DNA of 12,112 nucleotides from an uncultured archaeon (lineage in GTDB: Archaea > Halobacteriota > Methanosarcinia > Methanosarcinales > Methanoperedenaceae). The stretch lies in NCBI GenBank assembly GCA_902386115.1, contig CABMHZ010000245.1, positions 1-12,112 of the forward strand. Reading direction: 5' to 3'. Below the pieces are notes generated by a model, which was not told where the DNA came from, searched no databases, and worked only from the letters and a program-made list of their open reading frames with translations. Numbering within the stretch: position 1 is the stretch's first letter; each line of letters opens with the position of its first letter. A program made the translations under genes and the position numbers. Shown in pieces: positions 412 through 12,112 of this stretch.

Positions 412-3000
412 CTAAAAATCGAATAATTGTCTCTGTTTAGTTTCTGTAGCCGCCTTTTTCTCCCCCATACATCTTAACATTTCCCCGGTTATCCCGAAAT
501 CGGAAAGTATGCGCTCAACAGGCGGAAGTATCTGTTTATTGACATAATAATCCACATCCAGGGGCAGTTTTTTCTCTTTTGCGTATTCAGGGTCTTCCGC
601 CCTTTCCACGAACATCCCTTTTCCCGCCAGGATGACAAATGGTATCCTGTCGCCCACACTGGCAACTATGCCTCTTTTCTGCAATTTTTCGATGACAGTT
701 GTGTGAGGCTGTTTGTTCTTATAGCTCCCGACTTTCTTGGTGTACTGCCTTGTCAGTATCAGGTCATCGAACAGCTCGCTGTCTTTCCCGGTATCCATCG
801 ACCTTATGCGGTTTATGGTATCCTTCACAAGTTCGACCGCATCATCCACTTTTCCTTCTTTCAGCACAAGCTCAAGAACTCTTTCAACTGTCTTTGTGGT
901 CAATCCGCACCAGTCGCGGCGGACAGTTTCCATGCCTTTTACCTTTATTTTTTCCTTCATTCCCTTCGCTGTCTTTTCCATTATCAGAAGGGCATAACGT
1001 TTCTTTGCCAGGAATATCGCGCGCCTGGCAAATGAGTCAAAAACAAGTTCCATAGGCTTGACAAGTGAATCCGTGACGGTATTTGCAATGCTATTTCCCA
1101 CAAGTTGCGCTTCGTCAAAAGTAAGCTCTTTATCAAGGAGATGAACGAAAACGCTGTCCGTATCTCCGTACACCACAGAGAGAATAATTCGTTTCCCGTC
1201 TTTTATTTCATCTTTTTTAAATGCCCTGCCGTCTTTCAGGGTTATTTCCTTTATATCGTTCTCTATAAGTTTCTTGGTGCGAAGGATATTCTCGCGCCCG
1301 AAGCTCGTTACCGCGCCTGCAAGCGTCAGGCTGTAGAGCCGCGCCCGCGCATATCCTGAATAACCGTAGAAGCTGTTAAGCAGTATCTTGAGCGCGAGTT
1401 GCGTGGCATCAAGCGCCCTGTATTCTTCTTCGTTAGCTGTCTTCATTTTTGCCCGAGTAGCCTGCCTGCGGTTCAGGAGTTCTTCAAGTATGGACGGTAC
1501 AATCCCTTTTACCACATCCCGCGAGACAAAAACACCGCCTGTCGGTGCAACGATAACATCATCGGGTCTCTCGCCTACAACCACTGTTGTGTAGCACAGG
1601 TTATGTGCCATCATTATTGTTGGGTAAAGCGACTTGTAATCAAGTATCACGATATTCTCAAGCAGCCCTTTCTTTGGTGTAAGCACTTCGGCGCCAGCCA
1701 GTTCCTCTCCTTCATCGAACCTTTCATCCGACATTTCGCCAGTGGGACGTGTGGGCAACACGCGGTCGTGTTTTTTATACTCCTTGAGTATGAGGTTCTC
1801 TACCATCTGGGTCTGCCCGCCGTCAAGGATATCCTGGAGCAGCGTCCCGCTCACCCTTGCAAGAGCGATGTACTTGTCTATAAGCCGCAGCTTCAAAAGG
1901 AAGGCAAGGGCAAGCTCGGAGTCGCGTCTCGCATATTCGATGAATTTCGAAAGCTTCTCACCGTTATCATTCCAGTACGATTCCATTTCAAGAAAAGGAA
2001 TTTCCAGTTTCTCAAGCCCGAGCAGTTCCTTTGCAGCGTTCCTGAGCGTGTATTGCTTGAGCGAGAATTCACGGCGAAGCAGCGGCAGCACGTCCACGGC
2101 GATGCGTCCCATCACGCTTACTCGTGTGATGTTCCCGATCTTCCTGTAATAGAGCGTTTTCCCGTCCCTTCCTGCAAGCGGTTCTATCCTTGCCCCTTTC
2201 CTGTTCAGCGCCTTTATCCTGTCCACGATGTAGGGAATGTCAAAACTGTTGGAGTTATACCCGAGCAGGATGTCGGGATCGTAATCCCTTATGATATCAA
2301 AAAACCGCCGCAGCATTGCCTCTTCACTGCCGCAGCTCTCGACATCCATCTTATTGTCTGTCTTTTTTCCCACAAGCACAAGCGTCTTTTTACCTTCAAA
2401 TTCAGGCTCAAAAGTAAGACTTATAAGAACTATGGGCGAATTCTCTGGCACCGGCATGGCGCCATGCAGGGGCAGGCACTCGATATCGAATGCAAGGTGC
2501 CTGAAAGGCGCATTTTTCAGTATATCTATCGCTTCCACTTTTCTTGATGTTAACCTGATACTGCTGAGAATGTCGGCATCATCGGAATTTTCTTCAGGTT
2601 CTGCCGCTGCCCACATCATCCCGCCAAGACCGTTGTCAACCATATACCTGTTCCTGAACAGGATATCGGTCTCATAAATATCGTCCACCATTTTTTTTAC
2701 ATCATCACGGATGGCTGGAACGCCCTTGGGGTCGTAGAGAATGATCTTGAGCATGGTGACTTGATTCTTAAAATACCCTATGGGTTCAAACCTCTTTACG
2801 ACTTCTATCCGTTTTATATGCTCCTTGAAGCGTTCTTTTAAAATATCCGCACTTTCAGGCAACGCTTTGGCATAAAAATAAGGCTCAAATTCCGGCACCG
2901 AGCAGCAGACGCTTTTTCCCGACCCGTCCCTTCCATAGAGCCGCACCACAGGCTTACCATCTCTGTAGGTGTAATCGGCATCGAGTATCTGGAAATTCAT
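412..3000 (-). CDS. polB: Family B DNA polymerase (archaeal replicative PolB type), apparently intact and intein-free
   Basis: 862-aa ORF carrying all canonical motifs. Exo I: FDIECLP. Exo II: LLGYNSNSFDIPYI. Exo III: YARRDSELA. Pol motif A: DYKSLYPTIM. Motif B: KILLNSFYGYSGY. Motif C: VYGDTDSVFV. KKRYAL is also present. The N-terminus ILDADYTYRDGKPVVRLYGRD is typical of archaeal PolB. Confidence 0.95.
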   Translation of the reverse strand: MNFQILDADYTYRDGKPVVRLYGRDGSGKSVCCSVPEFEPYFYAKALPESADILKERFKEHIKRIEVVKRFEPIGYFKNQVTMLKIILYDPKGVPAIRDDVKKMVDDIYETDILFRNRYMVDNGLGGMMWAAAEPEENSDDADILSSIRLTSRKVEAIDILKNAPFRHLAFDIECLPLHGAMPVPENSPIVLISLTFEPEFEGKKTLVLVGKKTDNKMDVESCGSEEAMLRRFFDIIRDYDPDILLGYNSNSFDIPYIVDRIKALNRKGARIEPLAGRDGKTLYYRKIGNITRVSVMGRIAVDVLPLLRREFSLKQYTLRNAAKELLGLEKLEIPFLEMESYWNDNGEKLSKFIEYARRDSELALAFLLKLRLIDKYIALARVSGTLLQDILDGGQTQMVENLILKEYKKHDRVLPTRPTGEMSDERFDEGEELAGAEVLTPKKGLLENIVILDYKSLYPTIMMAHNLCYTTVVVGERPDDVIVAPTGGVFVSRDVVKGIVPSILEELLNRRQATRAKMKTANEEEYRALDATQLALKILLNSFYGYSGYARARLYSLTLAGAVTSFGRENILRTKKLIENDIKEITLKDGRAFKKDEIKDGKRIILSVVYGDTDSVFVHLLDKELTFDEAQLVGNSIANTVTDSLVKPMELVFDSFARRAIFLAKKRYALLIMEKTAKGMKEKIKVKGMETVRRDWCGLTTKTVERVLELVLKEGKVDDAVELVKDTINRIRSMDTGKDSELFDDLILTRQYTKKVGSYKNKQPHTTVIEKLQKRGIVASVGDRIPFVILAGKGMFVERAEDPEYAKEKKLPLDVDYYVNKQILPPVERILSDFGITGEMLRCMGEKKAATETKQRQLFDF

Positions 3001-3024
3001 TATGGTTAGATTTGATTTAACAGG

Positions 3025-3030
3025 TTTATA
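3025..3030 (-). promoter_or_regulatory. Candidate archaeal TATA box (TATAAA on the minus strand) for polB, implying a leaderless or near-leaderless transcript
   Basis: The intergenic gap between the dprA-like stop (3037) and the polB ATG (3000) is only 36 nt. On the minus strand it reads gaaaccTATAAAcctgttaaatcaaatctaaccataATG. That places TATAAA at -30..-25 relative to the A of the ATG, which is the spacing expected for an archaeal promoter starting at or near the start codon. No SD-like motif is present in the gap. Confidence 0.3.
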
Positions 3031-3036
3031 GGTTTC

Positions 3037-4209
3037 TTAATGTGCATCCTCAAAATCTTCCAATTTCCTATTATTAGAAGTTGCACTTATTTTTTTACCC
3101 CTTTTTTTCTTTTTGTTTGATTGTGCGTACCCTGCTAATGGGACAGATAGATTCAACTTGTATGCGGAAACAAATGCCGAAACTTCTTCTTTGATGGTTG
3201 ATGCATGTTCACATCTATCTAATGTAACCAGCAGACTCGGTCGTGACATTGATGTGATCTTTGAACCCGATTGATATGCAGATTTCAACGCATATAACTC
3301 ATCTTTTTTCTTCTGCATTAAGGTCTTTGCCAGATACACATCGTCATCATTTTCAAATACAATATTGGCCCGATTATCGGCAATCAATTGATTATTGCCA
3401 CTTTGTTTTGATGCTTCAGGTGAATTTAGGGGATGTTTCATTACAATTAGTACTCTCTTTTGTTTTTCACAAAATCCCACAGTATGCATAGTGCCACCCT
3501 TGATGCCTGTTTCGATGACCAGAACGCCCAGAGATAAACCACTCTGGATCCGGTCGCGTTCCACAAAAAAGCTGTTGAATATTTTTGTGCCTGAGGGATA
3601 TTCTGAAACAAGCGCACCATTATTTATAATGATGGCATCTGCAAGTTCCTTGTTTTTATAAGGATATACAATATCTAATCCATGTGCCAATACGGCTACC
3701 GTTTGACCATTTGTTTCTAAAGCACCCTTATGTGCAGCCGAATCAATACCTTCAGCCAAACCACTGATAACAACATATCCTTCTTTAGCAAAAAGTTTTG
3801 CAATCTTTTTTGCCTGGTTTTTCCCGAAATCAGATGGTTTTCTCGTCCCGACAATTGCAATACTGTTTTTGTTTAAAGCCTCGAGATTCCCTTTGACGTG
3901 TAATAATACAGGCGGGTTGTCGATTATTGAAAGGCATTCGGGATAGTATGGACTTTCTCGTGATATTATCTTAATATTCTGTTTTTGCGAGATATTTATT
4001 ATTTCATGGGCTTTATCCCAACCTTTATTCGCATCTTGAATGTCTGGTATGGATATTCTTCCGAATTCTCCATTCGCCTTTTTTAGTATCTCAATTAAAT
4101 CGAGAGGACATGTTGGTTCTAATAAATCAGTTATTGATAGGATTTTCTCAATCGTTTTTACACCAACACCAGAGATTTGCTGCAAAGCCAGTATAGATAT
4201 TGGTTCCAT
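3037..4209 (-). CDS. dprA: DprA/Smf-like DNA-processing protein (Rossmann/SLOG-type core) with a divergent Lys-rich C-terminal extension
   Basis: 390-aa ORF. The N-terminus has an HhH-like segment, LQQISGVGVKTIEKIL. The DprA core follows: AIVGTRKPSDFGKNQAKKIAKLFAKEGYVVISGLAEGIDSAAHKGALETNGQTVAVLAHGLDIVYPYKNKELADAI..NGALVSEYPSGT..FNSFFVERDRIQSGLSLGVLVIETGIKGGTMHTVGFCEKQKRVLIV, then GNNQLIADNRANIV. The last ~110 aa carry no motif I recognise and end in SNKKKKRGKK. A GGAG lies 8 nt upstream of the ATG, and the start is only 12 nt after the upstream PRTase stop. Confidence 0.85.
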   Translation of the reverse strand: MEPISILALQQISGVGVKTIEKILSITDLLEPTCPLDLIEILKKANGEFGRISIPDIQDANKGWDKAHEIINISQKQNIKIISRESPYYPECLSIIDNPPVLLHVKGNLEALNKNSIAIVGTRKPSDFGKNQAKKIAKLFAKEGYVVISGLAEGIDSAAHKGALETNGQTVAVLAHGLDIVYPYKNKELADAIIINNGALVSEYPSGTKIFNSFFVERDRIQSGLSLGVLVIETGIKGGTMHTVGFCEKQKRVLIVMKHPLNSPEASKQSGNNQLIADNRANIVFENDDDVYLAKTLMQKKKDELYALKSAYQSGSKITSMSRPSLLVTLDRCEHASTIKEEVSAFVSAYKLNLSVPLAGYAQSNKKKKRGKKISATSNNRKLEDFEDAH

Positions 4210-4221
4210 GCTGCTTGCTCC

Positions 4222-4770
4222 TTATATAAATTGAGTTAGCCCAAGTGCATACATAACTACAATTTTAGCTCCAGTATTTTCTAACATATATTTTCCAGCC
4301 CTTAATGATATTCCAGTTGTTGTTACATCATCCAGAAGAAGTACTTGTTGGTATTTGATTATAATCTCGTTTTTCAAAGTAAGAGATTCTATTTCTGATT
4401 TCAGGTCGCGTTTACCGCCTAATGCCTTTTTTGGAATTTCATTAACCCTTACTATAACATCAGTTCCATCGATTATTGGAGTTTTACATAATCTTTTTGC
4501 GATTGTTCTAATACCAGATGGTGCAGTCCCAATAATATGTTTTTGTATAACACATATAACATATTTTTCAGTATCCGAAAAAATTGCGCGCAATTCGTTT
4601 ACAAAGTATATGATATCACTTTCACTTGGATTATAGTGTTTTATTTGAAGAACTGATCTGGAAAAAGAATCAAACTTCGGGTTATATTTTGGTTGATACT
4701 TGCCAAGAGAAATTATTTTATTTCTGTCGGCATTATTTTTTGTCGAATCTCGGAATATTGTACATTGCAT
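4222..4770 (-). CDS. ComF-like type I phosphoribosyltransferase (PRTase) domain protein
   Basis: 182-aa ORF. The C-terminal PRPP-binding loop QQVLLLDDVTTTGISLRAGKYMLENTGAKIVVMYALG is the hallmark of type I PRTases, with the length and placement seen in ComF/ComFC-family proteins. There is no N-terminal CxxC zinc-finger, and the N-terminal ~90 aa have no recognisable motif. The gene is very AT-rich. Confidence 0.8.
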   Translation of the reverse strand: MQCTIFRDSTKNNADRNKIISLGKYQPKYNPKFDSFSRSVLQIKHYNPSESDIIYFVNELRAIFSDTEKYVICVIQKHIIGTAPSGIRTIAKRLCKTPIIDGTDVIVRVNEIPKKALGGKRDLKSEIESLTLKNEIIIKYQQVLLLDDVTTTGISLRAGKYMLENTGAKIVVMYALGLTQFI

Positions 4771-4862
4771 TATTTACTCATCCATTTATTGGCATTCACT
4801 TGAAAAAGCTGATTAGACATATTTATCAAATTATAATGACTATTTCTCTATATATAGTAATT

Positions 4863-5318
4863 CTAAGCGGAGTGAAAGTCTTCATTATCGAGGGGGTTGA
4901 TCAGCTTTATCCAGGAAATCTTTTTAAAGTCTTTATCATTTTCCGTATAGATCGAGAATACGTTATTTTCTCTCATGGTTGCAGCCAGCAGCGCATCCCA
5001 GTAATGAATTCCATATTTTGTACTGATAGCGATAGCTGATTTTATTGTTTGTGCATTACAGGTAATGACATGCCAGCCCTGGAAATCGATTATGAGTTCA
5101 ATAAAATCTCCTGCCACCTTTGCCGGTATCGGCTTTGATATCTTTTTTGTTACGACAACATAGAATTCCGACAGGTTCTGGACAGAAACAGCAAGCTTGC
5201 GCTTATTTTTCCAGCAGTCGGCTACCAGTTCAGAGCAAACCTTTCGTTTTTCAGGTTCGCTTTCATCAAAAACATAGCTCAATAAGTTTGAATCTATCAG
5301 GGCAAGTTCATCTTTCAT
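4863..5318 (-). CDS. vapC: PIN-domain ribonuclease toxin, VapC-like
   Basis: 151-aa ORF. PIN acidic signature positions: N-terminal LIDSNLLSYVFDESEP, central HYWDALLAATM, and C-terminal IYTENDKDFKKI. It overlaps the upstream small antitoxin ORF by 11 nt, the classic type II TA architecture. Confidence 0.8.
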   Translation of the reverse strand: MKDELALIDSNLLSYVFDESEPEKRKVCSELVADCWKNKRKLAVSVQNLSEFYVVVTKKISKPIPAKVAGDFIELIIDFQGWHVITCNAQTIKSAIAISTKYGIHYWDALLAATMRENNVFSIYTENDKDFKKISWIKLINPLDNEDFHSA

Positions 5319-5547
5319 GGAGTTCGTCCCTGTTCCTGTATAATCTCTTGCCGAAATCGAATTTCAGTTCAAGGAGCTTGAATGCCTCCTGTGCTATTTT
5401 TTTCTGCTTTTTTTCATCGACCCATTTTTTCATCGCTTCTGTCAGCGCTTTTCCAAGTTCGCCCTTTCTGGTGCCATGGACGCTGCGGACAACCATCCTG
5501 AACTCCTTTTCCACGTCGTCTTTGATATTAACTGTTATCGTGCCCAT
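5308..5547 (-). CDS. vapB: VapB-like antitoxin (probable ribbon-helix-helix type)
   Basis: 79-aa ORF immediately upstream of, and overlapping, the PIN gene. The N-terminal strand-helix pattern is TITVNIKDDVEKEFRMVV. The central region is Lys/Glu-rich. The C-terminal ...RNRDELHER tail is common in archaeal VapB antitoxins. Confidence 0.7.
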   Translation of the reverse strand: MGTITVNIKDDVEKEFRMVVRSVHGTRKGELGKALTEAMKKWVDEKKQKKIAQEAFKLLELKFDFGKRLYRNRDELHER

Positions 5548-5786
5548 GATTGTAAATGAATTTGCGTTGTATTTAAATGTATTGTATTTTTAAATTTTAA
5601 AAACACCATAAGATTTACGCTCTCAGTTATCCGATATGCTATTATTTCAATACCAGTAATAAAAGACGAAATAAATATATAAACCCTGATTACATATATA
5701 GAACTGAAAGAACAGATGACAGGGGAAGACTTGAGGTTGCCTGAGAACAGAATTAGATTCTTTACTGTTTAGTATAAAAGAAGATT

Positions 5787-7682
5787 ATGGAAGAAAGATT
5801 GGACAGGGTCTTTACATTAAGACACGACCTGAAAATAATAATTATTCTCAGCAGTGTAGTATTCCTGATATCAGCCGCGCTGAACTTCCAGAACCGGATC
5901 GATGGGGGGTTTTTGATCCAATATGGGCAGTGGGGGATATCCGAGGCGCTTGTCTTCATCTCATTCCTCGGTGTCGCTCTTTCGGTCTATTATTATATGG
6001 GTCTTCGGGAAACGAAAGACCAGCTTGAAATGCGGCGCCAGGCTGAGATGATAACCAGGGATCGCCTCCTCCGGACAAAGGCGTTCCATGTCATAGACAG
6101 GGAGATACTGTCAAACCTGCCCATAATCGAGATCATAAAGAGTGTAATAAAGAACGTCCCCAAAGAACTCGGAGGTGACGTTGTTGCGATAAGCATGGAT
6201 GGAATGCACTTTGCAAAACTGCCAGCGGGGGATATCGTAGAGGAGGATGTCATTTCGGTCTCCGATGACATTATGAAGTGTTTCGATGAAAATAAGACGG
6301 CAATAGGAATAAATAACCTTGATATCGAACCGCGTGTGGCGATACTATCTGAAAGGATAAAACACCTGAGATCTCCTTCATATCTCTGTGTGCCCATGGT
6401 GGCTAAGGACAGGACGATAGGTGTCATGCATCTTCTTTCCCAGACCTCAAAGGTGTTCGTGGAAGAAGACATAGAATTTTTCACGGCTCTTGCTTCGAAG
6501 GCTGCCATCGCTGTGGAAAGAGCGAAAATGACAGCTGCACTGCGCCAGAGCGAAGCTGAACTGAAGCGGGCGCAGATCGTCTCAAGGACAGGTAACTGGT
6601 CTATGGATGTCAAGGCGAATGAGCTCATGTGGTCGGATGAGACCTACCGCATTTTCGGAGTTCCTATCGGATCTTCAATGACCTTTGAGAAGTTCCTGGA
6701 ACGCGTGCACCTGGACGACAGGGAATTAGTTCATGCTAAATGGACAGGGGCTCTCAGAGGGGAACCGTACAATATAGAGCACCGCATAATCGTCAACGGT
6801 GAATTGAAATGGGTGAATGAGCTGGCGGATTTCGAGTTTGATAAAGACGGGAAAGCCCTGAAAGGGTTCGGCACAGTCCAGGATGTGACAGAGCGCAAAG
6901 CCGCACAGGAGATGCGGATCGAAAAAGAGCGTCTTGAGTTCGCAAGCAGAGCCAAGAGCGAATTCATTGTAAGCATGAGCCATGAGCTGCGGGCTCCTCT
7001 AAACTCCATAATGGGTTTCTCCGACCTCTTGAAAATGAAACTCGCAGGAGACCTGAACGAAAAGCAGGTCCAGTACATAGACAGCATTTATTCCGAAGGC
7101 TCTTTCCTTCTCATTTTAATCAATGATATACTTGACCTGAGCAAAGTCGAGGCGGGTAAGATAATACTTGTGATCGAAAAGGTTAACCTTCATGCAACTA
7201 TCGAGGAAGCTCTCCTGCTGATAAGGGAGAAGGCGCTCAAGCAAAAAATAGACTTCAAACTGGATTTTGATCCCCATATCGAGATTATCGGGGCTGACAG
7301 GCAGCGTGTTAAACAGATACTTTATAATCTGCTCTCCAACGCTGTGAAGTTCAGCAAGGAGGAAGGCGGTACGGTAACCATTACCACAAAGAAGGAGGGC
7401 GATATGGCGCAGATAAGTGTCTCTGACACGGGGATAGGGATGAAGCCTGAGAACATGGGAAGGCTATTTCAGAGGTTCGAGCAGCTTGAACCCGGTATCT
7501 CGATGAAATACGGGGGCACAGGACTCGGACTTTCGATTTGCAAACAACTGGTGGAACTGCACGGCGGAAAGATATGGGCAAAAAGTGAACCGGGTGAGGG
7601 CTCCACGTTCACGTTCACGCTCCCGATTGAAATAAAAAAGAGCGCCCCTGACAAAAATGTTATCATTGAGAAAACGATTTAA
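5787..7682 (+). CDS. Membrane-anchored sensor histidine kinase (2 TM - GAF - PAS - HisKA - HATPase_c)
   Basis: 631-aa ORF. There are two N-terminal hydrophobic helices (IIIILSSVVFLISAALNF and ALVFISFLGVALSVYYYMGL). A GAF-like region contains SYLCVPMVAKDRTIGVMHLLS. A PAS-like region contains TGNWSMDV..ELMWSDETYRIFG...IEHRII..GELKWV. The H-box is SMSHELRAPLNSIMGFSDLL, with the His codon at 6981-6983. The N-box is ILYNLLSNAVKFS, and the G-boxes are DTGIGM and GGTGLGLSICKQLVELHGGKIWAKSEPGEGSTFTFTLP. No response regulator lies within the window. Confidence 0.9.
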   Translation: MEERLDRVFTLRHDLKIIIILSSVVFLISAALNFQNRIDGGFLIQYGQWGISEALVFISFLGVALSVYYYMGLRETKDQLEMRRQAEMITRDRLLRTKAFHVIDREILSNLPIIEIIKSVIKNVPKELGGDVVAISMDGMHFAKLPAGDIVEEDVISVSDDIMKCFDENKTAIGINNLDIEPRVAILSERIKHLRSPSYLCVPMVAKDRTIGVMHLLSQTSKVFVEEDIEFFTALASKAAIAVERAKMTAALRQSEAELKRAQIVSRTGNWSMDVKANELMWSDETYRIFGVPIGSSMTFEKFLERVHLDDRELVHAKWTGALRGEPYNIEHRIIVNGELKWVNELADFEFDKDGKALKGFGTVQDVTERKAAQEMRIEKERLEFASRAKSEFIVSMSHELRAPLNSIMGFSDLLKMKLAGDLNEKQVQYIDSIYSEGSFLLILINDILDLSKVEAGKIILVIEKVNLHATIEEALLLIREKALKQKIDFKLDFDPHIEIIGADRQRVKQILYNLLSNAVKFSKEEGGTVTITTKKEGDMAQISVSDTGIGMKPENMGRLFQRFEQLEPGISMKYGGTGLGLSICKQLVELHGGKIWAKSEPGEGSTFTFTLPIEIKKSAPDKNVIIEKTI

Positions 7683-8654: not shown

Positions 8655-9161
8655 AACCCACTCCTGCACTATCTCGCGCATATATCACCTGCCTGTCCCT
8701 CAATATTTTATTAATGAATGGGTCACCGATATTGATCCTGTGCCTGAGTTCTTCCGGCGTGCGAACTACTATGTCCATAGGAACATATCCGTCTTTTAAT
8801 AACGCCTGATGGATGCGGCGCGTTTTATCGGTCTTTCTGCGGATTCCATTATCACAAAAAGGTCAAGGTCGCTGTCATTGTCGGGTTTTCCCCATGCATA
8901 GGAGCCGAACAGGATTATCTTTTCAGGATGAAGGTTTTCTGCGATTTTCCTGGCAATATCAGCGATAGTTTTCCGGGATATCATAAATGTGCTTGTGTCA
9001 CCTTCATTATCCGTTAAATTCCTGATAAGTTCTTTTGAGAAGAAATACCGGATCGGGATGACATTATTTTCGTCAAGTTTTACATCAAATTTACAGCCGC
9101 ACACAGCGCAGACTCTGCCTTTAAGTATGGAGCTTTTCACGGTCACATCTTTCTTTTTCAT
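8653..9161 (-). pseudogene. Minimal nucleotidyltransferase (MNT / NTP_transf_2, HEPN-MNT antitoxin type) interrupted by a frameshift near 8796-8803
   Basis: The track ORF 9161..8796 contains the NTase signature KIILFGSYAWGKPDNDSDLDLFVI and stops at ...RPIKRAASIRRY*. My translation of a different minus-strand frame, immediately after, gives LLKDGYVPMDIVVRTPEELRHRINIGDPFINKILRDRQVIYARDSAGVG* with its stop at 8655..8653. That is the normal C-terminal half of these NTases. The two halves join at the sequence cgttattaaaagac, so a 1-nt indel is implied. The likely true start is M60 (ATG 8984..8982, MISRKTIADIARKIAENL...), because the upstream 59 codons look non-homologous. Confidence 0.7.
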
Positions 9162-9275: not shown

Positions 9276-9839
9276 ATGGTAATACCAGACTTAAAATCAG
9301 CAGAAGAAAAAGCACAACCTGAGGAAATAATCACCGGAGCCATGCGCATCACTGGCGTTAAAATGACATACTACTTCATCTGCCACACAAAACTATGGCT
9401 TTTCTCGCACAATATCACGCTTGAGAAAGAGCATGATAATGTGAATATCGGAAAACAACTGCATGAAGACCGCTATAAGCGCGACTCAAAAGAAATCACT
9501 ATCGACCAGACGATAAGCATCGATTTTATCAGGAAGGGAGATACCATCGTCCTCCATGAGATCAAAAAGACCAAAAGCATGGAAGTTGCACATCGCTGGC
9601 AGATGCTATATTACCTGTACTATCTCAAATCAAAAGGCATCAAAGCCACAGGAGAAATAAATTATCCTCTTGTCAGCAAGAAAGAAGATATCCAGCTTCT
9701 TGAAAAGGATGAATCCGATATGGAAAATGTGATAAATGATATCAGGAAGATCGCGATGGGAAGAATGCCCCCGCCAAAGAAGATCAGGATATGCCAGAAA
9801 TGCGCATATTACGAATTCTGTTTTGGAGATGAATTATGA
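9276..9839 (+). CDS. cas4: CRISPR-associated exonuclease Cas4 (RecB-like nuclease with Fe-S cluster)
   Basis: 187-aa ORF. There is an N-terminal Cys in [12 protein letters not shown] and a C-terminal [10 protein letters not shown], giving the four-Cys cluster pattern C...CxxCx5C. The RecB nuclease motifs are IDF...[10 protein letters not shown] (D...ExK) and QMLYYLYYL (QhxxY). A GGAG lies 4 nt upstream of the ATG. The stop overlaps the cas1 start (ATGA). Confidence 0.9.
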
Positions 9840-10825
9840 AGGAAGATTACTACATAACACAGGACGGTGGACTCACAAGACATGAGAATACCGTATATTT
9901 CGAGAACGATAATACAAAACGCGCCCTTCCGGTAAATAAGATATATTCGATATACGCATACGGCAGGCTCAGTTTCTCATCGGGCGTCGTGGATTATCTT
10001 GCAAAAAGCGGGATACCGATACACTTCTTCAATTATTACGGATTTTACGAAGGCTCGTTCTACCCGCGTGAAACGCTGATAAGCGGCGATTTGACTGTAA
10101 AGCAGGCATCGAATTATCTTGACAGCACAAAGAGGCTGGTCCTCGCAAAGTCCTTTGTAGAAGGTGCATGTGGGAATATCCTCCGCAACCTTAACTATTA
10201 CGCGCGTGATATGAAAAGTCTGGAAACGCATATCGGCGGGATCGAATCCGAGATCGCAAGATTACCCGAGACAAACACTATCCCTGAGGTCATGAATGTG
10301 GAAGGACGGATAAGGAACATGTATTATACGGCGCTTGATGAGATATTTCCTGAAAATTACAAGATAATCAAGAGGTCAAGGATGCCGCCGGAGAACAGGA
10401 TGAACACTCTTATCAGTTTCGGGAATTCGCTGATGTACACGACCACACTTTCGGAGATATACAATACCCAGCTTAATCCCACTATATCTTTCCTTCATGA
10501 GCCTTTTGAGCGGAGATTCTCGCTTGCTCTTGATGTGAGCGAGATATTCAAACCTATCATTATTGACAGGATCATCCTGAAACTTGTGAACAAGAACATG
10601 CTCGATGATGATTGTTTCAGGGGAGAGATCGGGGATATGCTGCTAAGTGAAAAGGGGAAAAAGCTGTTCCTGAATGAATATTACGAGAAACTTTCCACAA
10701 CCGTTAAACACAGAGGATTGGAACAAAATGTTTCTTTCAAGCGGCTTATACGACTTGAATTGTATAAACTTGTTAAGCACTGCCTCGGTGAAAAGGATTA
10801 CAAGCATCTTATTATGTGGTGGTAA
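9836..10825 (+). CDS. cas1: CRISPR-associated integrase Cas1
   Basis: 329-aa ORF. Typical Cas1 blocks are present: [26 protein letters not shown] (catalytic E), [23 protein letters not shown] (catalytic H) and [21 protein letters not shown] (catalytic D). It overlaps cas4 by 4 nt. Confidence 0.95.
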
Positions 10826-11091
10826 TCTTGTATGTGATAATCGTTTATGATGTTGGGGTGGAAAGGGTGAATAAGGTAAGAGTTTACCTGAAGCAGTATC
10901 TTAACTGGGTGCAGAACAGCGTGCTTGAAGGTGAGCTGACAGAGGCTGAATACATGAAGGTTATGAGTGGGCTTCGGGATTTGATTGATGAAATCCAGGA
11001 TAATGTTCTCTGTTATAAAACAAAAGACAGGAAGTATCTTGACATCGATGAGATCGGTACTAAAAAGGCTGAGATCACAACGATAATCTGA
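10816..11091 (+). CDS. cas2: CRISPR-associated endoribonuclease Cas2
   Basis: 91-aa [40 protein letters not shown] is the ferredoxin-fold N-terminus of Cas2, including the metal-binding Asp in VYDV. The start is ambiguous. ATG 10816 overlaps cas1 by 10 nt. TTG 10828, 2 nt after the cas1 stop, would give the more canonical (M)YVIIVYDV N-terminus. Confidence 0.9.
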
Positions 11092-11102
11092 GATAAATAG
11101 TT

Positions 11103-11154
11103 AAAAGTCGTGGATCTTTATAAAGGAAATACAAAACCCGGGATACACGACTTT
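11103..11154. repeat. Inverted repeat / potential hairpin in the promoter-distal leader (9-bp stem, 33-nt loop)
   Basis: AAAGTCGTG (11104-11112) is the exact reverse complement of CACGACTTT (11146-11154). The loop contains the TTTATAAA TATA-like element. Confidence 0.4.
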
Positions 11155-11214
11155 GAATCCTGTTTTTACAAAGGTTTTTGTGGGATGAGGTCTATCTGGA
11201 TTTGAGAGAAAATC

Positions 11215-11243
11215 AATAGACATTACCTGAAATAGTGTCTATT
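11215..11243. repeat. Inverted repeat / potential hairpin in the promoter-proximal leader (8-bp stem, 13-nt loop)
   Basis: AATAGACA (11215-11222) is the exact reverse complement of TGTCTATT (11236-11243). The loop is ttacctgaaatag. Confidence 0.4.
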
Positions 11244-11287
11244 TCCCTGCACAAATTCCACCTTAAAAACAGAAGAAAAAAGCTTGG

Positions 11288-11636
11288 GTTAAAATCAGAC
11301 CTTAGAGGGATTGAAACAATATATCATTAGTTTATAAACTATGTCTGGAATTAAGTTAAAATCAGACCTTAGAGGGATTGAAACGAAGCAAACTGGGAAA
11401 CACTTATGGATGCTATATGTGTTAAAATCAGACCTTAGAGGGATTGAAACGCATTCGCGGCAAGAGGTCATGATGCGTGGAGTTGTGTTAAAATCAGACC
11501 TTAGAGGGATTGAAACCCAATAATTGCAGGTTTGACAACTGCGCCAGTTATAGTTAAAATCAGACCTTAGAGGGATTGAAACTCTGTCAACTGCCTCATT
11601 AAACAGCATAACGGGTGCGTTAAAATCAGACCTTAG
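11288..11636 (+). CRISPR. CRISPR array: 5 identical 30-nt repeats GTTAAAATCAGACCTTAGAGGGATTGAAAC, 5 spacers (37, 36, 36, 36, 36 nt), plus a sixth repeat truncated after 18 nt
   Basis: Repeats lie at 11288-11317, 11355-11384, 11421-11450, 11487-11516 and 11553-11582, and all are identical. Partial repeat 6 (GTTAAAATCAGACCTTAG) lies at 11619-11636. Spacers: S1 11318-11354 AATATATCATTAGTTTATAAACTATGTCTGGAATTAA; S2 11385-11420 GAAGCAAACTGGGAAACACTTATGGATGCTATATGT; S3 11451-11486 GCATTCGCGGCAAGAGGTCATGATGCGTGGAGTTGT; S4 11517-11552 CCAATAATTGCAGGTTTGACAACTGCGCCAGTTATA; S5 11583-11618 TCTGTCAACTGCCTCATTAAACAGCATAACGGGTGC. The repeat 3' end ATTGAAAC matches the canonical 8-nt crRNA 5' handle of Cas6-processed type I/III systems. 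Confidence 0.97.
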
Positions 11637-12112
11637 GCATTACCTAAAAATAGATTAGTAATATTTATCATGTAAGCCACCGTATATAGAGTATGGGTAC
11701 TAACAAGCAGTATGAATGGTGGCTAAAAGCCCTCTCAGGAGCAGATGAAGTTCAAGCAAGACGTTTTGCGGGTGCAATAGCGCTTGAAATTGGTTGGGGT
11801 GGAATTACAAAAGTGGAAGAACTAACGGGAATGTCCCATTCAACCATCAGTAAAGGAATTGAGGAACTCAAAACCTCAGAGAAACTTGAACCTCCAGAAA
11901 GACTTCGAGCATCCGGAGGAGGAAGGAAAAAGGTAGAAGAAAAAGATCCTGGAATCATTAGAGATCTTGAAAAAATCATGGATGAAAATACGTCAGGTGA
12001 TCCAATGAGTCTCCTGAAGTGGACAAACAAATCAACTTACAAAATTGCTGATGAATTGAGAAGGATGGAACATAAAATTGATCCAGACACGGTAGGGCGT
12101 CTTTTGAAATAA
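11637..12112 (+). mobile_element. Left part of an ISAzo13-family insertion sequence inserted into CRISPR repeat 6; extends beyond the window
   Basis: The repeat consensus breaks abruptly at 11637 (expected AGGGATTGAAAC, observed GCATTACCTAAA...). A further 56 nt of AT-rich sequence follows, then a transposase ORF. The exact IS terminus and any target-site duplication cannot be defined without the right end. Confidence 0.55.
11693..12112 (+). CDS. ISAzo13-family (DDE_Tnp_ISAZ013-like) transposase, N-terminal DNA-binding portion; the ORF stops after 139 codons at the window end
   Basis: The block GWGGITKVEELTGMSHSTISKGIEEL (HTH), then RLRASGGGRKKVEEKDPGIIRDLEKIMDENTSGDPMSLLKWTNKSTYKIADELRRMEHKIDPDTVGRLL, matches the conserved N-terminal region of ISAzo13-type transposases (R.PGGGRKK..E.DP.L...L..L....T.GDP.S.L.WT.KS.R.LA.EL...GH.VS..TV..LL). 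Full-length members are several hundred aa, so the TAA at 12110-12112 is premature relative to the family. That could reflect a frameshift, a pseudogene or a split ORF. Confidence 0.75.
   Translation: MGTNKQYEWWLKALSGADEVQARRFAGAIALEIGWGGITKVEELTGMSHSTISKGIEELKTSEKLEPPERLRASGGGRKKVEEKDPGIIRDLEKIMDENTSGDPMSLLKWTNKSTYKIADELRRMEHKIDPDTVGRLLK

Follow-up and report, generated by a model that had tools for sequence, protein, structure and literature searches.

The two adjacent minus-strand genes located between positions 3037 and 4770 of the window (the whole stretch of 12,112 nucleotides analysed herein) very probably constitute an archaeal ShosTA system, that is, a type IV toxin-antitoxin pair of the abortive-infection type and of the short-toxin subtype, carried on a Methanoperedens-like chromosome within a variable islet upstream of polB. 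The pair is an ordinary member of the published ShosTA family, and the likeness to the DprA-PPRT system of Rousset, proposed earlier in a sequence-only reading of this DNA, turned out to be correct, DprA-PPRT being another name for ShosTA (bioRxiv 10.1101/2022.05.11.491447). A pair of DprA-like protein and PRTase from a P2 hotspot confers protection from T7 and lambda on E. coli (PMC9122126), and the mechanism of ShosTA, described in that reading as unresolved, has since been published in 2025-26 (PMC11961720, PMC12961424). The remark that no characterised archaeal version was known stands insofar as no experimentally tested archaeal copy was found in the literature searched, and falls short in that DefenseFinder censuses already list ShosTA as a widespread archaeal system (bioRxiv 10.1101/2024.10.26.620412, PMC11291487, PMC13465236).

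Both genes start with ATG: the PRTase-only toxin gene shosT, of the short ShosT subtype, extends from 4770 to 4222 (minus strand, 182 aa) as assigned from the open reading frame, the PADLOC match and the AF2 fold, and the DprA-like antitoxin gene shosA extends from 4209 to 3037 (minus strand, 390 aa) as assigned from PADLOC, Pfam and PDB matches. The intercistronic spacer of 12 nt (4210..4221, minus strand, GGAGCAAGCAGC), read directly from the sequence, carries a Shine-Dalgarno-like GGAG located immediately 3' of the TAA stop and ending 8 nt ahead of the shosA ATG. The family-B polymerase gene polB (3000..412) lies on the same strand, 36 nt downstream of shosA, and the GC content of the shosTA pair is 0.357 against 0.476 for polB and 0.445 for the remainder of the window. 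On the other side is vapBC, a separate neighbouring module (4863..5547, minus strand), consisting of an RHH gene (5547..5308; RHH_6, E 0.0047) and a PIN/VapC gene (5318..4863; PIN, E 5.3e-10), and the two modules form part of one variable islet upstream of polB. The AT-rich intergenic region upstream of shosT (4771..4862, minus strand), in which the TATA-like stretches CTATATATAG and CATTATAA were read directly, is presumed to include the shosT promoter. A CRISPR-cas locus is located 4.5 kb from the pair, with cas4 from 9276 followed by cas1, cas2 and a CRISPR array of 6 repeats. The gene arrangement, the spacing, the AT-richness relative to polB and the setting between polB and vapBC near CRISPR-cas are thus all as the sequence-only reading had given them. 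No HAD hydrolase gene was found in the window.

The DprA-like protein matched the PADLOC ShosA model PDLC03961 over residues 5-295 (E 1.2e-76, 255.9 bits), and its top sequence matches in PDB were E. coli ShosA structures 8zva and 9vzo (E 9e-32). The DprA core, assigned by Pfam PF02481 (DNA_processg_A) to residues 75-283 (E 6.7e-65), is intact as had been claimed. The score of 200.5 bits against the dprA equivalog model of NCBIfam, TIGR00732, exceeds its cut-off of 191.15, and because of this the protein is annotated publicly as DprA; ShosA could not be separated from canonical DprA by fold search (3maj, 3uqz and 8zva, all at E about 1e-21), nor could the two be told apart by sequence. Residues 1-314 were confidently modelled by AF2, starting with an N-terminal helical, SAM-like domain (3982..4209, minus strand, residues 1-76; helices 3-10, 17-24, 35-49 and 57-76, pLDDT >90), followed by the DprA-type Rossmann core (3343..3981, minus strand, residues 77-289) and by an extra C-terminal helix (3268..3342, minus strand, residues 290-314). 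The Ser/Lys-rich tail (3040..3267, minus strand, residues 315-390), which includes a KKKKRGKK patch and 11 Ser and 10 Lys among its 76 residues, is predicted to be disordered (pLDDT about 30). The C-terminal third, hitherto considered unrecognisable, hence conceals no further domain.

This architecture parallels that of E. coli ShosA, which also comprises a SAM-like domain, a DprA core, an extra C-terminal helix, a disordered tail and ssDNA-binding arginines. The E. coli SAM domain consists of five helices within residues 1-94 (PMC11961720), and helix alpha14 sets E. coli ShosA apart from S. pneumoniae DprA (PMC12961424); judging from its position, helix 290-314 may correspond to alpha14. The putative ssDNA-binding arginines R123 and R218 of the core are invariant among 29 homologues and align to R139 and R234 of E. 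coli ShosA, which that protein needs both to bind ssDNA and to act as an antitoxin (PMC12961424). The instability of E. coli ShosA is due to its disordered C-terminus (PMC11961720), and by analogy the tail of the window protein, which differs in length and sequence between homologues, is a candidate instability element that might serve as a degron. The two proteins differ, however, in the residues for RecA contact and dimerisation: the RecA-binding K200 and R206 of E. coli ShosA are replaced by Y184 and A190, the latter being invariant within the archaeal clade, and the dimerisation residues L181 and F182 by E165 and T166, so that neither set is kept in the window ShosA.

The PRTase gave a modest match to the PADLOC ShosT model PDLC03962 (E 9.5e-13, 46.6 bits, residues 53-179). 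Its PRPP-binding loop (4306..4344, minus strand, residues 143-155, VLLLDDVTTTGIS) is intact, as noted before, with the motif VLLLDDVTTTG at residues 143-153 including the acidic pair D147/D148; D147, D148, T151, G153 and S155 are invariant among 27 aligned homologues, and the start of the protein, MQC(T/R)IFRD, is likewise conserved. Pfam PF00156 was matched weakly and over residues 127-173 only, its 23.4 bits (E 4.1e-5) falling short of the gathering score of 26.3. The N-terminal half, which had been called unrecognisable, is included in a confident AF2 model (pLDDT 90.4) and falls within the alignment of the ComF-family model TIGR00201 with residues 19-176. In the model an 11-residue loop (75-85) follows strand 70-74, and a loop of lower confidence (109-122) carries the conserved R121, so that the predicted fold appears to be that of a non-canonical PRTase of ShosT type, with an extended PPi loop and a long flexible loop. 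The best TM-score was obtained with E. coli ShosT 8zvd/8zvc (TMq 0.65, with modest E-values of 6e-5), salvage PRTases and PyrR reaching 0.33-0.47. The salvage enzymes APRT and OPRT were rejected as candidates, since the apt and pyrE models, whose cut-offs are 107-243 bits, gave no more than 22.4 bits and matched the PRPP-loop region only.

E. coli ShosTA (APEC O1 / KTE181) has been characterised structurally and biochemically (PDB 8ZVA-8ZVD, 9VZO, 9W2P; PMC11961720, PMC12961424). Its toxin, like that of the window, is a PRTase with the DD pair in the PRPP loop, and mutation of this pair (D331A/D332A) abolished toxicity (PMC11961720, PMC12961424). The E. coli toxin differs in its length of 424 aa and in carrying an N-terminal PPase-like hydrolase domain (residues 1-164), which is absent from the window ShosT and for which 182 aa leave no space. 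This fused domain, which raises the toxicity of E. coli ShosT only modestly, does not define the family, because the PADLOC ShosT profile comprises 237 positions and because the domain is missing from the phage and plasmid members as well. The sequence likeness between the two toxins is limited to the PRPP loop: E. coli ShosT was not matched by the window ShosT in a phmmer search of PDB at E <= 1, the PDB sequences that were matched had E 0.02 or worse, and the ShosT family profile reached E. coli ShosT at E 0.012 within the PRPP loop region. Since this sequence link is weak, we base the membership in ShosTA on the PADLOC match, the fold and the pairing of the genes taken together.

The closest parallels are the orf14/orf15 pair of Salmonella phage SopEPhi and the pair on plasmid pHB of Hymenobacter sp. 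APR13, which share with the window pair the gene order, a PRTase-only toxin of 174-193 aa followed by a DprA-like protein, and the PADLOC models at similar scores. The supposition that the window pair may be a distinct variant was therefore not upheld, as its short toxin fits an existing model and occurs in both of these bacterial elements. The window ShosT is 39% identical to the pHB toxin (E 1e-31) and 28% identical to the SopEPhi toxin (E 4e-14). All three pairs reside on mobile or variable DNA, SopEPhi being a P2-like phage, pHB a plasmid and the window pair chromosomal in an archaeal host, and the ShosA tail of the window is far longer (76 residues, 390 aa in total, versus 325 aa for SopEPhi orf15). 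The public record of the Hymenobacter plasmid copy carries a transformation GO term. Weaker PADLOC matches were given by PsyrA for the DprA-like protein (E 3.8e-35) and by PsyrT for the PRTase (E 4.8e-5). PsyrTA/RqlHI resembles the window pair in having a DprA-like antitoxin and a toxin that ends in a related PRTase domain, but in PsyrT/RqlH this domain is preceded by a RecQ-like helicase region (PMC4670107), for which there is no space in the window toxin; correspondingly, the window ShosT matched positions 588-684 only of the 689-position PsyrT profile.

The pair is kept together elsewhere, in many differing contexts. The order PRTase then DprA was found in 25 of the 36 related loci anchored on ShosT, mostly from Methanosarcinales, ANME and Methanoperedens and in unrelated contexts, with intergenic gaps ranging from -8 to +118 nt (most commonly 11), and at 18 of 21 loci the pair had a lower GC content than its flanks, the difference being 2 points or more at 14 of them. 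In close relatives whose PolB is 86-91% identical, the region upstream of polB contains shosTA, vapBC, both or neither, and this variable content indicates that the pair is a mobile accessory module rather than a partner of polB. For instance, L042 has vapBC but no shosTA, and in L043 and L070 vapBC lies on the opposite side of shosTA. Identities among three close relatives were 62-67% for ShosA, 88-92% for PolB and 83-95% for VapC. The toxin family alignment brought up no relative in IMG/VR and a fold search of BFVD gave nothing at E <= 0.001, so that these two sources offer no sign of archaeal viruses carrying the archaeal ShosTA clade.

The expectation of a patchy distribution was borne out by these loci, that of co-location with defence genes for a minority of them only. 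In a census of 107 neighbouring ORFs at 17 loci, no shared neighbour was detected apart from a HAD gene, which occurred at some of the loci. Methylases of type I RM systems, helicases and HNH genes were each encountered at 2-3 loci, and housekeeping genes flank most of the related loci. This prevalence of housekeeping genes over defence islands would suit a selfish addiction module, engaged in post-segregational killing or stabilisation of the islet and having no antiviral role in its host, and so would the position next to the vapBC toxin-antitoxin module in a region reshuffled between relatives. Decay states are known as well, in the form of an orphan antitoxin or an orphan toxin: in L035 shosA is retained while shosT is cut down to its last 46 codons or so, which is a typical decay state of a toxin-antitoxin pair, and ANME-2 genomes carry an intact, selected shosT without shosA, which is unexplained if ShosT is always toxic. 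Addiction as the sole function is nevertheless unlikely, given the strong protection against phage by bacterial members (PMC9122126, PMC11961720), the CRISPR-cas locus at 4.5 kb, and the type I RM, helicase or HNH genes beside some related loci. The addiction and antiviral roles are not mutually exclusive.

We also considered a DNA-processing pair like ComFC and DprA, in which the DprA-like protein would receive ssDNA from the PRTase-fold protein so that RadA can be loaded. ComFC proteins, which bind ssDNA as well as interacting with DprA (PMC9005727), share with the window pair the PRT fold, the extended PPi loop, the DDxxTTG PRPP loop and the association with an ssDNA-binding protein of the DprA family; in addition, the best Foldseek E-value for the ShosT model was that of H. 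pylori ComF 7p0h (1.6e-5), TIGR00201 aligned over nearly the full length, ShosA scored above the dprA equivalog cut-off, and a Cys-rich N-terminal extension is present in some members of the ShosT family. Against these, the TM-score of the ShosT model was 0.43 to ComF as compared with 0.65 to ShosT, TIGR00201 gave 28 bits versus a cut-off of 233.55, and the three cysteines of the window ShosT (C3, C73 and C95) do not make up the 4-Cys zinc finger of ComFC. The window genes stand side by side and are mobile, and do not belong to a competence regulon. Among the ORFs of the window there was no comEC, comEA or pilus gene, as reported before, and the patchy, low-GC, context-free spread with its decay states suits a toxin-antitoxin or defence module and not a conserved pathway. 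The DNA-processing role is thus highly improbable, and the earlier preference for a conflict system over a competence pair agrees well with the PADLOC ShosA and ShosT matches, the conserved pairing, the variable presence and the low GC.

A housekeeping pair of salvage PRTase and DNA-repair accessory protein tied to polB, suggested by the 36-nt distance on the same strand and by the adjacency of polB in three related contigs (L035, L043 and L070), is largely refuted and scarcely credible, since the polB accessory reading is ruled out by the absence of the pair from most polB loci (6 of the 10 close relatives and all of about 55 more distant ones), and since the pair is never near polB at the other related loci, lies 12 points below polB in GC, and is devoid of a PRTase approaching the apt or pyrE cut-offs. 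The sequence-level outcomes named beforehand as refuting a conflict system, namely a pairing confined to this locus, universal presence next to polB and a PRTase of salvage type, were not encountered.

For the archaeal ShosTA we propose a mechanism carried over from E. coli, in which ShosT would bind PRPP and pass phosphoribose to an acceptor, thereby upsetting the purine nucleotide pools and leading to replication or DNA damage. ShosA would counter this damage without binding ShosT, through ssDNA binding and recombinational repair, and would be short-lived owing to its disordered tail. Upon infection, shut-off of host expression by the virus, or titration of ShosA by viral ssDNA intermediates, could unleash ShosT, and the infected cell would then be arrested or killed. 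The archaeal recombinase is RadA, not RecA. The recombinase partner of ShosA in this archaeon would accordingly be RadA instead of RecA, this being the least supported step of the scheme.

A separate HAD hydrolase gene is added in many of the archaeal loci, an example being the one at 4156-4662 of L043. The HAD protein showed no sequence match to the N-domain of E. coli ShosT (8zvb), and homology between the two is not established, as the two are linked solely by the resemblance of each to BT2127, a HAD pyrophosphatase (PMC11961720). The window locus, lacking a pyrophosphatase-like hydrolase either fused or as a separate HAD gene, thus represents the minimal two-gene form. It is possible, if rather doubtful, that the archaeal clade forms a mechanistically distinct branch of ShosTA, with an antitoxin that depends on RadA or acts purely as an ssDNA sensor, an optional separate HAD pyrophosphatase, and the window pair as the minimal functional core; the suggestion of a RadA-dependent or sensor-only antitoxin stems from the replacement of the RecA-contact and dimer residues of E. 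coli ShosA.

The knowledge of ShosTA is little altered by this archaeal copy. As to the public DprA labels, the gene so named in genomes of Methanosarcinales, ANME and Methanoperedens encodes the antitoxin half of a toxin-antitoxin or defence pair. The finding that the HAD or PPase-like partner is separate or missing at many archaeal loci agrees with the modest boost of toxicity by the E. coli PPase domain, and the lack of conservation at the RecA-contact positions prompts one to ask by what means the antitoxin acts where the recombinase is RadA. The region upstream of polB in Methanoperedens-like genomes is a small hotspot trading toxin-antitoxin and defence modules, and if the archaeal clade is indeed a distinct branch, the pair would be the first abortive-infection system of this kind open to study in methane-cycling archaea.

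The PRTase gene (shosT, 182 aa, 4770..4222) and the DprA-like gene (shosA, 390 aa, 4209..3037) were called as minus-strand ORFs with exactly the limits proposed in the sequence-only reading, and are separated by a 12-nt spacer, GGAGCAAGCAGC, from the TAA stop of the former to the ATG of the latter; the GGAG noticed in that reading stands 8 nt upstream of the shosA start codon. The pair is, as had been remarked, AT-richer than polB (GC 0.357 vs 0.476, with 0.445 for the remaining window). Both sequence cores described as intact were confirmed, the DprA-like protein carrying a complete DprA domain (Pfam PF02481, E 6.7e-65, residues 75-283; 200.5 bits against NCBIfam TIGR00732, slightly over the cut-off of 191.15) and the PRTase carrying a PRPP loop of PRT type (VLLLDDVTTTG, residues 143-153), the region to which its weak Pfam PRT match (23.4 bits, short of the 26.3 gathering score) is confined. 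Against PADLOC-DB, the DprA-like protein matched ShosA (PDLC03961, E 1.2e-76, residues 5-295) and the PRTase matched ShosT (PDLC03962, E 9.5e-13, residues 53-179), both more strongly than the PsyrA and PsyrT models. ShosTA was originally reported as a toxin-antitoxin pair and later as an anti-phage system, and is the validated DprA plus PRTase pair of Rousset et al. from a P2 prophage hotspot (bioRxiv 10.1101/2022.05.11.491447; PMC9122126), so that the comparison with DprA-PPRT, another name for it, in the sequence-only reading was apt. The system and its mechanism are already known, the latter, called unresolved in that reading, having since been published (PMC11961720, PMC12961424). According to DefenseFinder censuses, archaea carry ShosTA more often than bacteria do, Asgard archaea being enriched in it, and among archaeal virus-host genomes about 16% have it (bioRxiv 10.1101/2024.10.26.620412, PMC11291487, PMC13465236). 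The archaeal copies, the short toxins and the separate HAD gene described below are not discussed in the two mechanism papers, and no experimental test of ShosTA in an archaeon was found in the literature.

In a PDB sequence search, the top matches of the window ShosA were E. coli ShosA (8zva, 9vzo; E 9e-32), closely followed by S. pneumoniae DprA. Its structural model is confident for residues 1-314, including N-terminal helices (SAM-like domain), the Rossmann core and a long extra helix (290-314), and disordered for residues 315-390, a layout matching that of E. coli ShosA, in which the disordered C-terminus renders the antitoxin unstable (PMC11961720, PMC12961424). Since layout and folds match known ones, the parts formerly called unrecognisable are not new domains: the C-terminal third of the DprA-like protein is a disordered antitoxin tail, and the N-terminal half of the PRTase is a ComF/ShosT-type N-terminal subdomain. 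Window ShosT D147 and D148, invariant in 27 homologues, are the counterparts of E. coli D331 and D332, mutation of which removes toxicity (PMC11961720, PMC12961424). By ungapped alignment of the two ShosA proteins, the ssDNA-binding residues R139 and R234 of E. coli correspond to window R123 and R218, both invariant in 29 homologues, while the RecA contacts K200 and R206 (window Y184 and A190) and the dimer-interface residues L181 and F182 (window E165 and T166) are not conserved. The archaeal recombinase is RadA, and therefore the RecA part of the E. coli mechanism is not simply transferable. ShosA proteins, among them that of the Hymenobacter plasmid pHB (L122 2617-3735), P0121, P0131 and P0157, score above the dprA equivalog cut-off and for that reason bear the public name DprA; the pHB copy also carries the GO term DNA-mediated transformation; for copies in defence pairs this label is likely misleading.

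E. coli ShosT (424 aa) combines the PRTase with an N-terminal hydrolase domain that is similar to BT2127, a HAD-family pyrophosphatase; mutations in this domain lower toxicity only slightly (PMC11961720), whereas the window toxin is a PRTase alone. The pairs of Salmonella phage SopEPhi (orf14, 193 aa, plus orf15) and plasmid pHB (174 aa plus 372 aa) match the same PADLOC models with scores similar to those of the window pair, their toxins being 28% and 39% identical to window ShosT, respectively. As judged from these matches, the short PRTase-only toxin is not a new form, and the idea of a distinct variant was not upheld. A conserved HAD-family gene lies directly 3' of shosA in seven of the loci examined, representing five distinct contexts (L043 4156-4662; L070 4077-4580; L019 7998-8501; L004 1881-2378; L020 7668-8159; L018 4919-5421, frameshifted; L032 7836-8336), and remnants of 29-30 codons were detected in L001-L003 and L017; no trace of it was found within the window. 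In profile and PDB sequence searches the encoded protein matched Pfam HAD_2 (E 1.4e-25) and, among others, BT2127 (3qu2, E 1.2e-7); BT2127 is also the structural comparator for the N-terminal domain of E. coli ShosT, to which (8zvb) the HAD protein gave no sequence match. Together with the homologue P0275, in which TPR, HAD and ShosT-type PRTase are fused, the separate HAD genes suggest that the archaeal clade has, as an optional partner with a gene of its own, the hydrolase that is fused to the toxin in E. coli.

Named homologues of both window proteins are mostly from Methanosarcinales, Methanoperedens, ANME-1 and ANME-2. A motif-based scan across GTDB, with each species represented by one genome, gave 35 loci, a few bacterial and about 30 archaeal (Methanosarcinales, ANME-2 and Methanogaster, Methanothrix, Methanophagales, Methanomassiliicoccales and Methanoperedens). 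The two genes are kept as neighbours elsewhere, shosA lying directly 3' of the toxin gene in 25 of 36 toxin-anchored loci (gap -8 to +118 nt), and pair GC is lower than that of the flanks in 18/21 loci, by at least 2 points in 14/21. The flanking genes vary (valS-hemA-hemB/ksgA, endonuclease V, GTPase and HNH genes among them), and a census of 107 ORFs from 17 loci revealed no conserved neighbour apart from the HAD gene of some loci; type I RM, helicase and HNH genes occur in only 2-3 loci each in that census. The distribution is patchy, six of ten close polB relatives being without shosTA at this locus. A purely selfish addiction module would be compatible with a defence role, and as the full explanation we consider it unlikely.

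Counted as 50%-identity representatives, the toxin family is large (170 clusters at E < 1e-30, 1109 at E < 1e-10), and in many of its proteins an N-terminal extension precedes the C-terminal PRTase module; in P0095, P0104 and P0119 this is Cys-rich, 60-75 residues long and ComFC zinc finger-like, with no match in a Pfam search of P0095. In P0222 (542 aa), a ShosT match (residues 30-204) precedes a ShosA match (224-507) within one polypeptide, which could be a fused toxin and antitoxin or the product of a gene call that read through. An intact 193-codon shosT without shosA was observed in ANME-2 and Methanogaster MAGs (L007, L012 and L014, each 5983-6564; L009 1573-2154; L013 2986-3567; L016 1592-2173; also L024-L026), 3' of a gene for a large membrane protein, putatively a MATE-type efflux protein, with a shosA remnant of 35-46 codons in two of these MAGs. 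Pairwise dN/dS of 0.10-0.49 indicates purifying selection on the orphan shosT, all copies of which carry GESSD instead of the family GG(S/N)RD, the equivalent of window R121 being S. The reverse decay state was found in a Ca. Methanoperedens sp. MAG (L035 5918-7370, JAUSDC010000197.1), where the toxin is lost and the antitoxin kept: gyrA is followed by the last ~46 codons of shosT, 85% identical in nucleotides to the 3' end of window shosT, and by an intact 405-aa shosA directly against polB.

The AlphaFold model of window ShosT is confident (pLDDT 90.4), and its best Foldseek matches were ComF of H. pylori, first by E-value (E 1.6e-5, TMq 0.43), and ShosT of E. coli (8zvd/8zvc, E 6e-5 to 1e-4), the latter with the top TM-score of 0.65. 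A ComFC/DprA-like DNA-handling pair, to which this ComF fold and a near full-length alignment with the comF model would point, is nevertheless very improbable, because ShosT lacks the zinc finger, the comF score is far under the cut-off, competence genes are absent nearby and the distribution resembles that of a TA module; transformation had already been regarded as the less plausible role. An ordinary salvage PRTase was rejected, salvage-enzyme profiles giving at most 22 bits (cut-offs 107-243) and salvage PRTases and PyrR reaching TM-scores of only 0.33-0.47 with the model.

Metagenomes scanned with the N-terminus of PolB yielded 80 loci; with the window and L035 counted in, ten loci with PolB 86-91% identical and a sufficiently long upstream stretch were compared. 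The region upstream of polB (window 3001-5760; L042-L047, L068, L070) is a small variable hotspot of Methanoperedens-like genomes with at least six gene contents, including vapBC, shosTA and AAA_14/DUF4143 ATPases. The order is vapBC, shosTA, polB in the window; gyrA, AAA ATPase, shosT-shosA-HAD, vapBC, AAA ATPase, polB in L043 and L070; vapBC, polB in L042; a NTPase_1-type gene before polB in L044 and L068; other genes before polB in L045 and L047; and, listed separately, other genes before polB in L046. Identity between the window, L035 and L043 is 62-67% for ShosA, against 88-92% for PolB and 83-95% for VapC. The variable contents and the divergence of ShosA mark the pair as an accessory, exchangeable module; a replication accessory of polB was rejected, the pair varying among close polB relatives and being absent upstream of polB in all ~55 more distant loci. 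The window vapBC (RHH antitoxin 5547..5308 and PIN toxin 5318..4863, minus strand, 11-nt overlap), 83-86% identical to the L042 and L043 copies, is by the same comparison far less diverged than shosTA. Besides the family-B DNA polymerase gene found by profile search, the window carries a GAF-PAS histidine kinase gene, nadA, and a minus-strand gene for a Pol-beta-type (MNT-like) nucleotidyltransferase (121 aa, 8796-9161) that lacks an adjacent HEPN partner ORF; a fragment 93% identical to the latter lies upstream of polB in L068. Plus-strand cas4-cas1-cas2 adaptation genes and a CRISPR array (9276-11650; six copies of the 30-nt repeat GTTAAAATCAGACCTTAGAGGGATTGAAAC, spacing 66-67 nt) are present, with no CRISPR effector gene within the window; they are followed at 11693-12112 by the first part of a transposase gene of ISAzo13 type, which runs off the end of the window.

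Gene arrangement, residue conservation, predicted folds, the antitoxin tail and a mobile, patchy distribution were seen in the sequences and models themselves, whereas toxicity, trigger, recombinase partner and any antiviral effect in archaea are carried over from E. coli. As a ShosTA toxin-antitoxin pair, the archaeal copy may act along the steps described in E. coli, from which we infer the following. ShosT would bind PRPP through its DD loop and a flexible loop and pass phosphoribose to an acceptor, upsetting purine nucleotide pools and harming replication. ShosA would not bind the toxin; it would bind ssDNA and promote recombinational repair, perhaps with RadA as the recombinase partner, offsetting the damage, and would be turned over rapidly owing to its disordered tail. 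Either viral shut-off of host gene expression, leaving ShosT unopposed, or viral ssDNA intermediates diverting ShosA, thereby freeing ShosT, could be the trigger, and under unopposed ShosT the infected archaeal cell would arrest or die.
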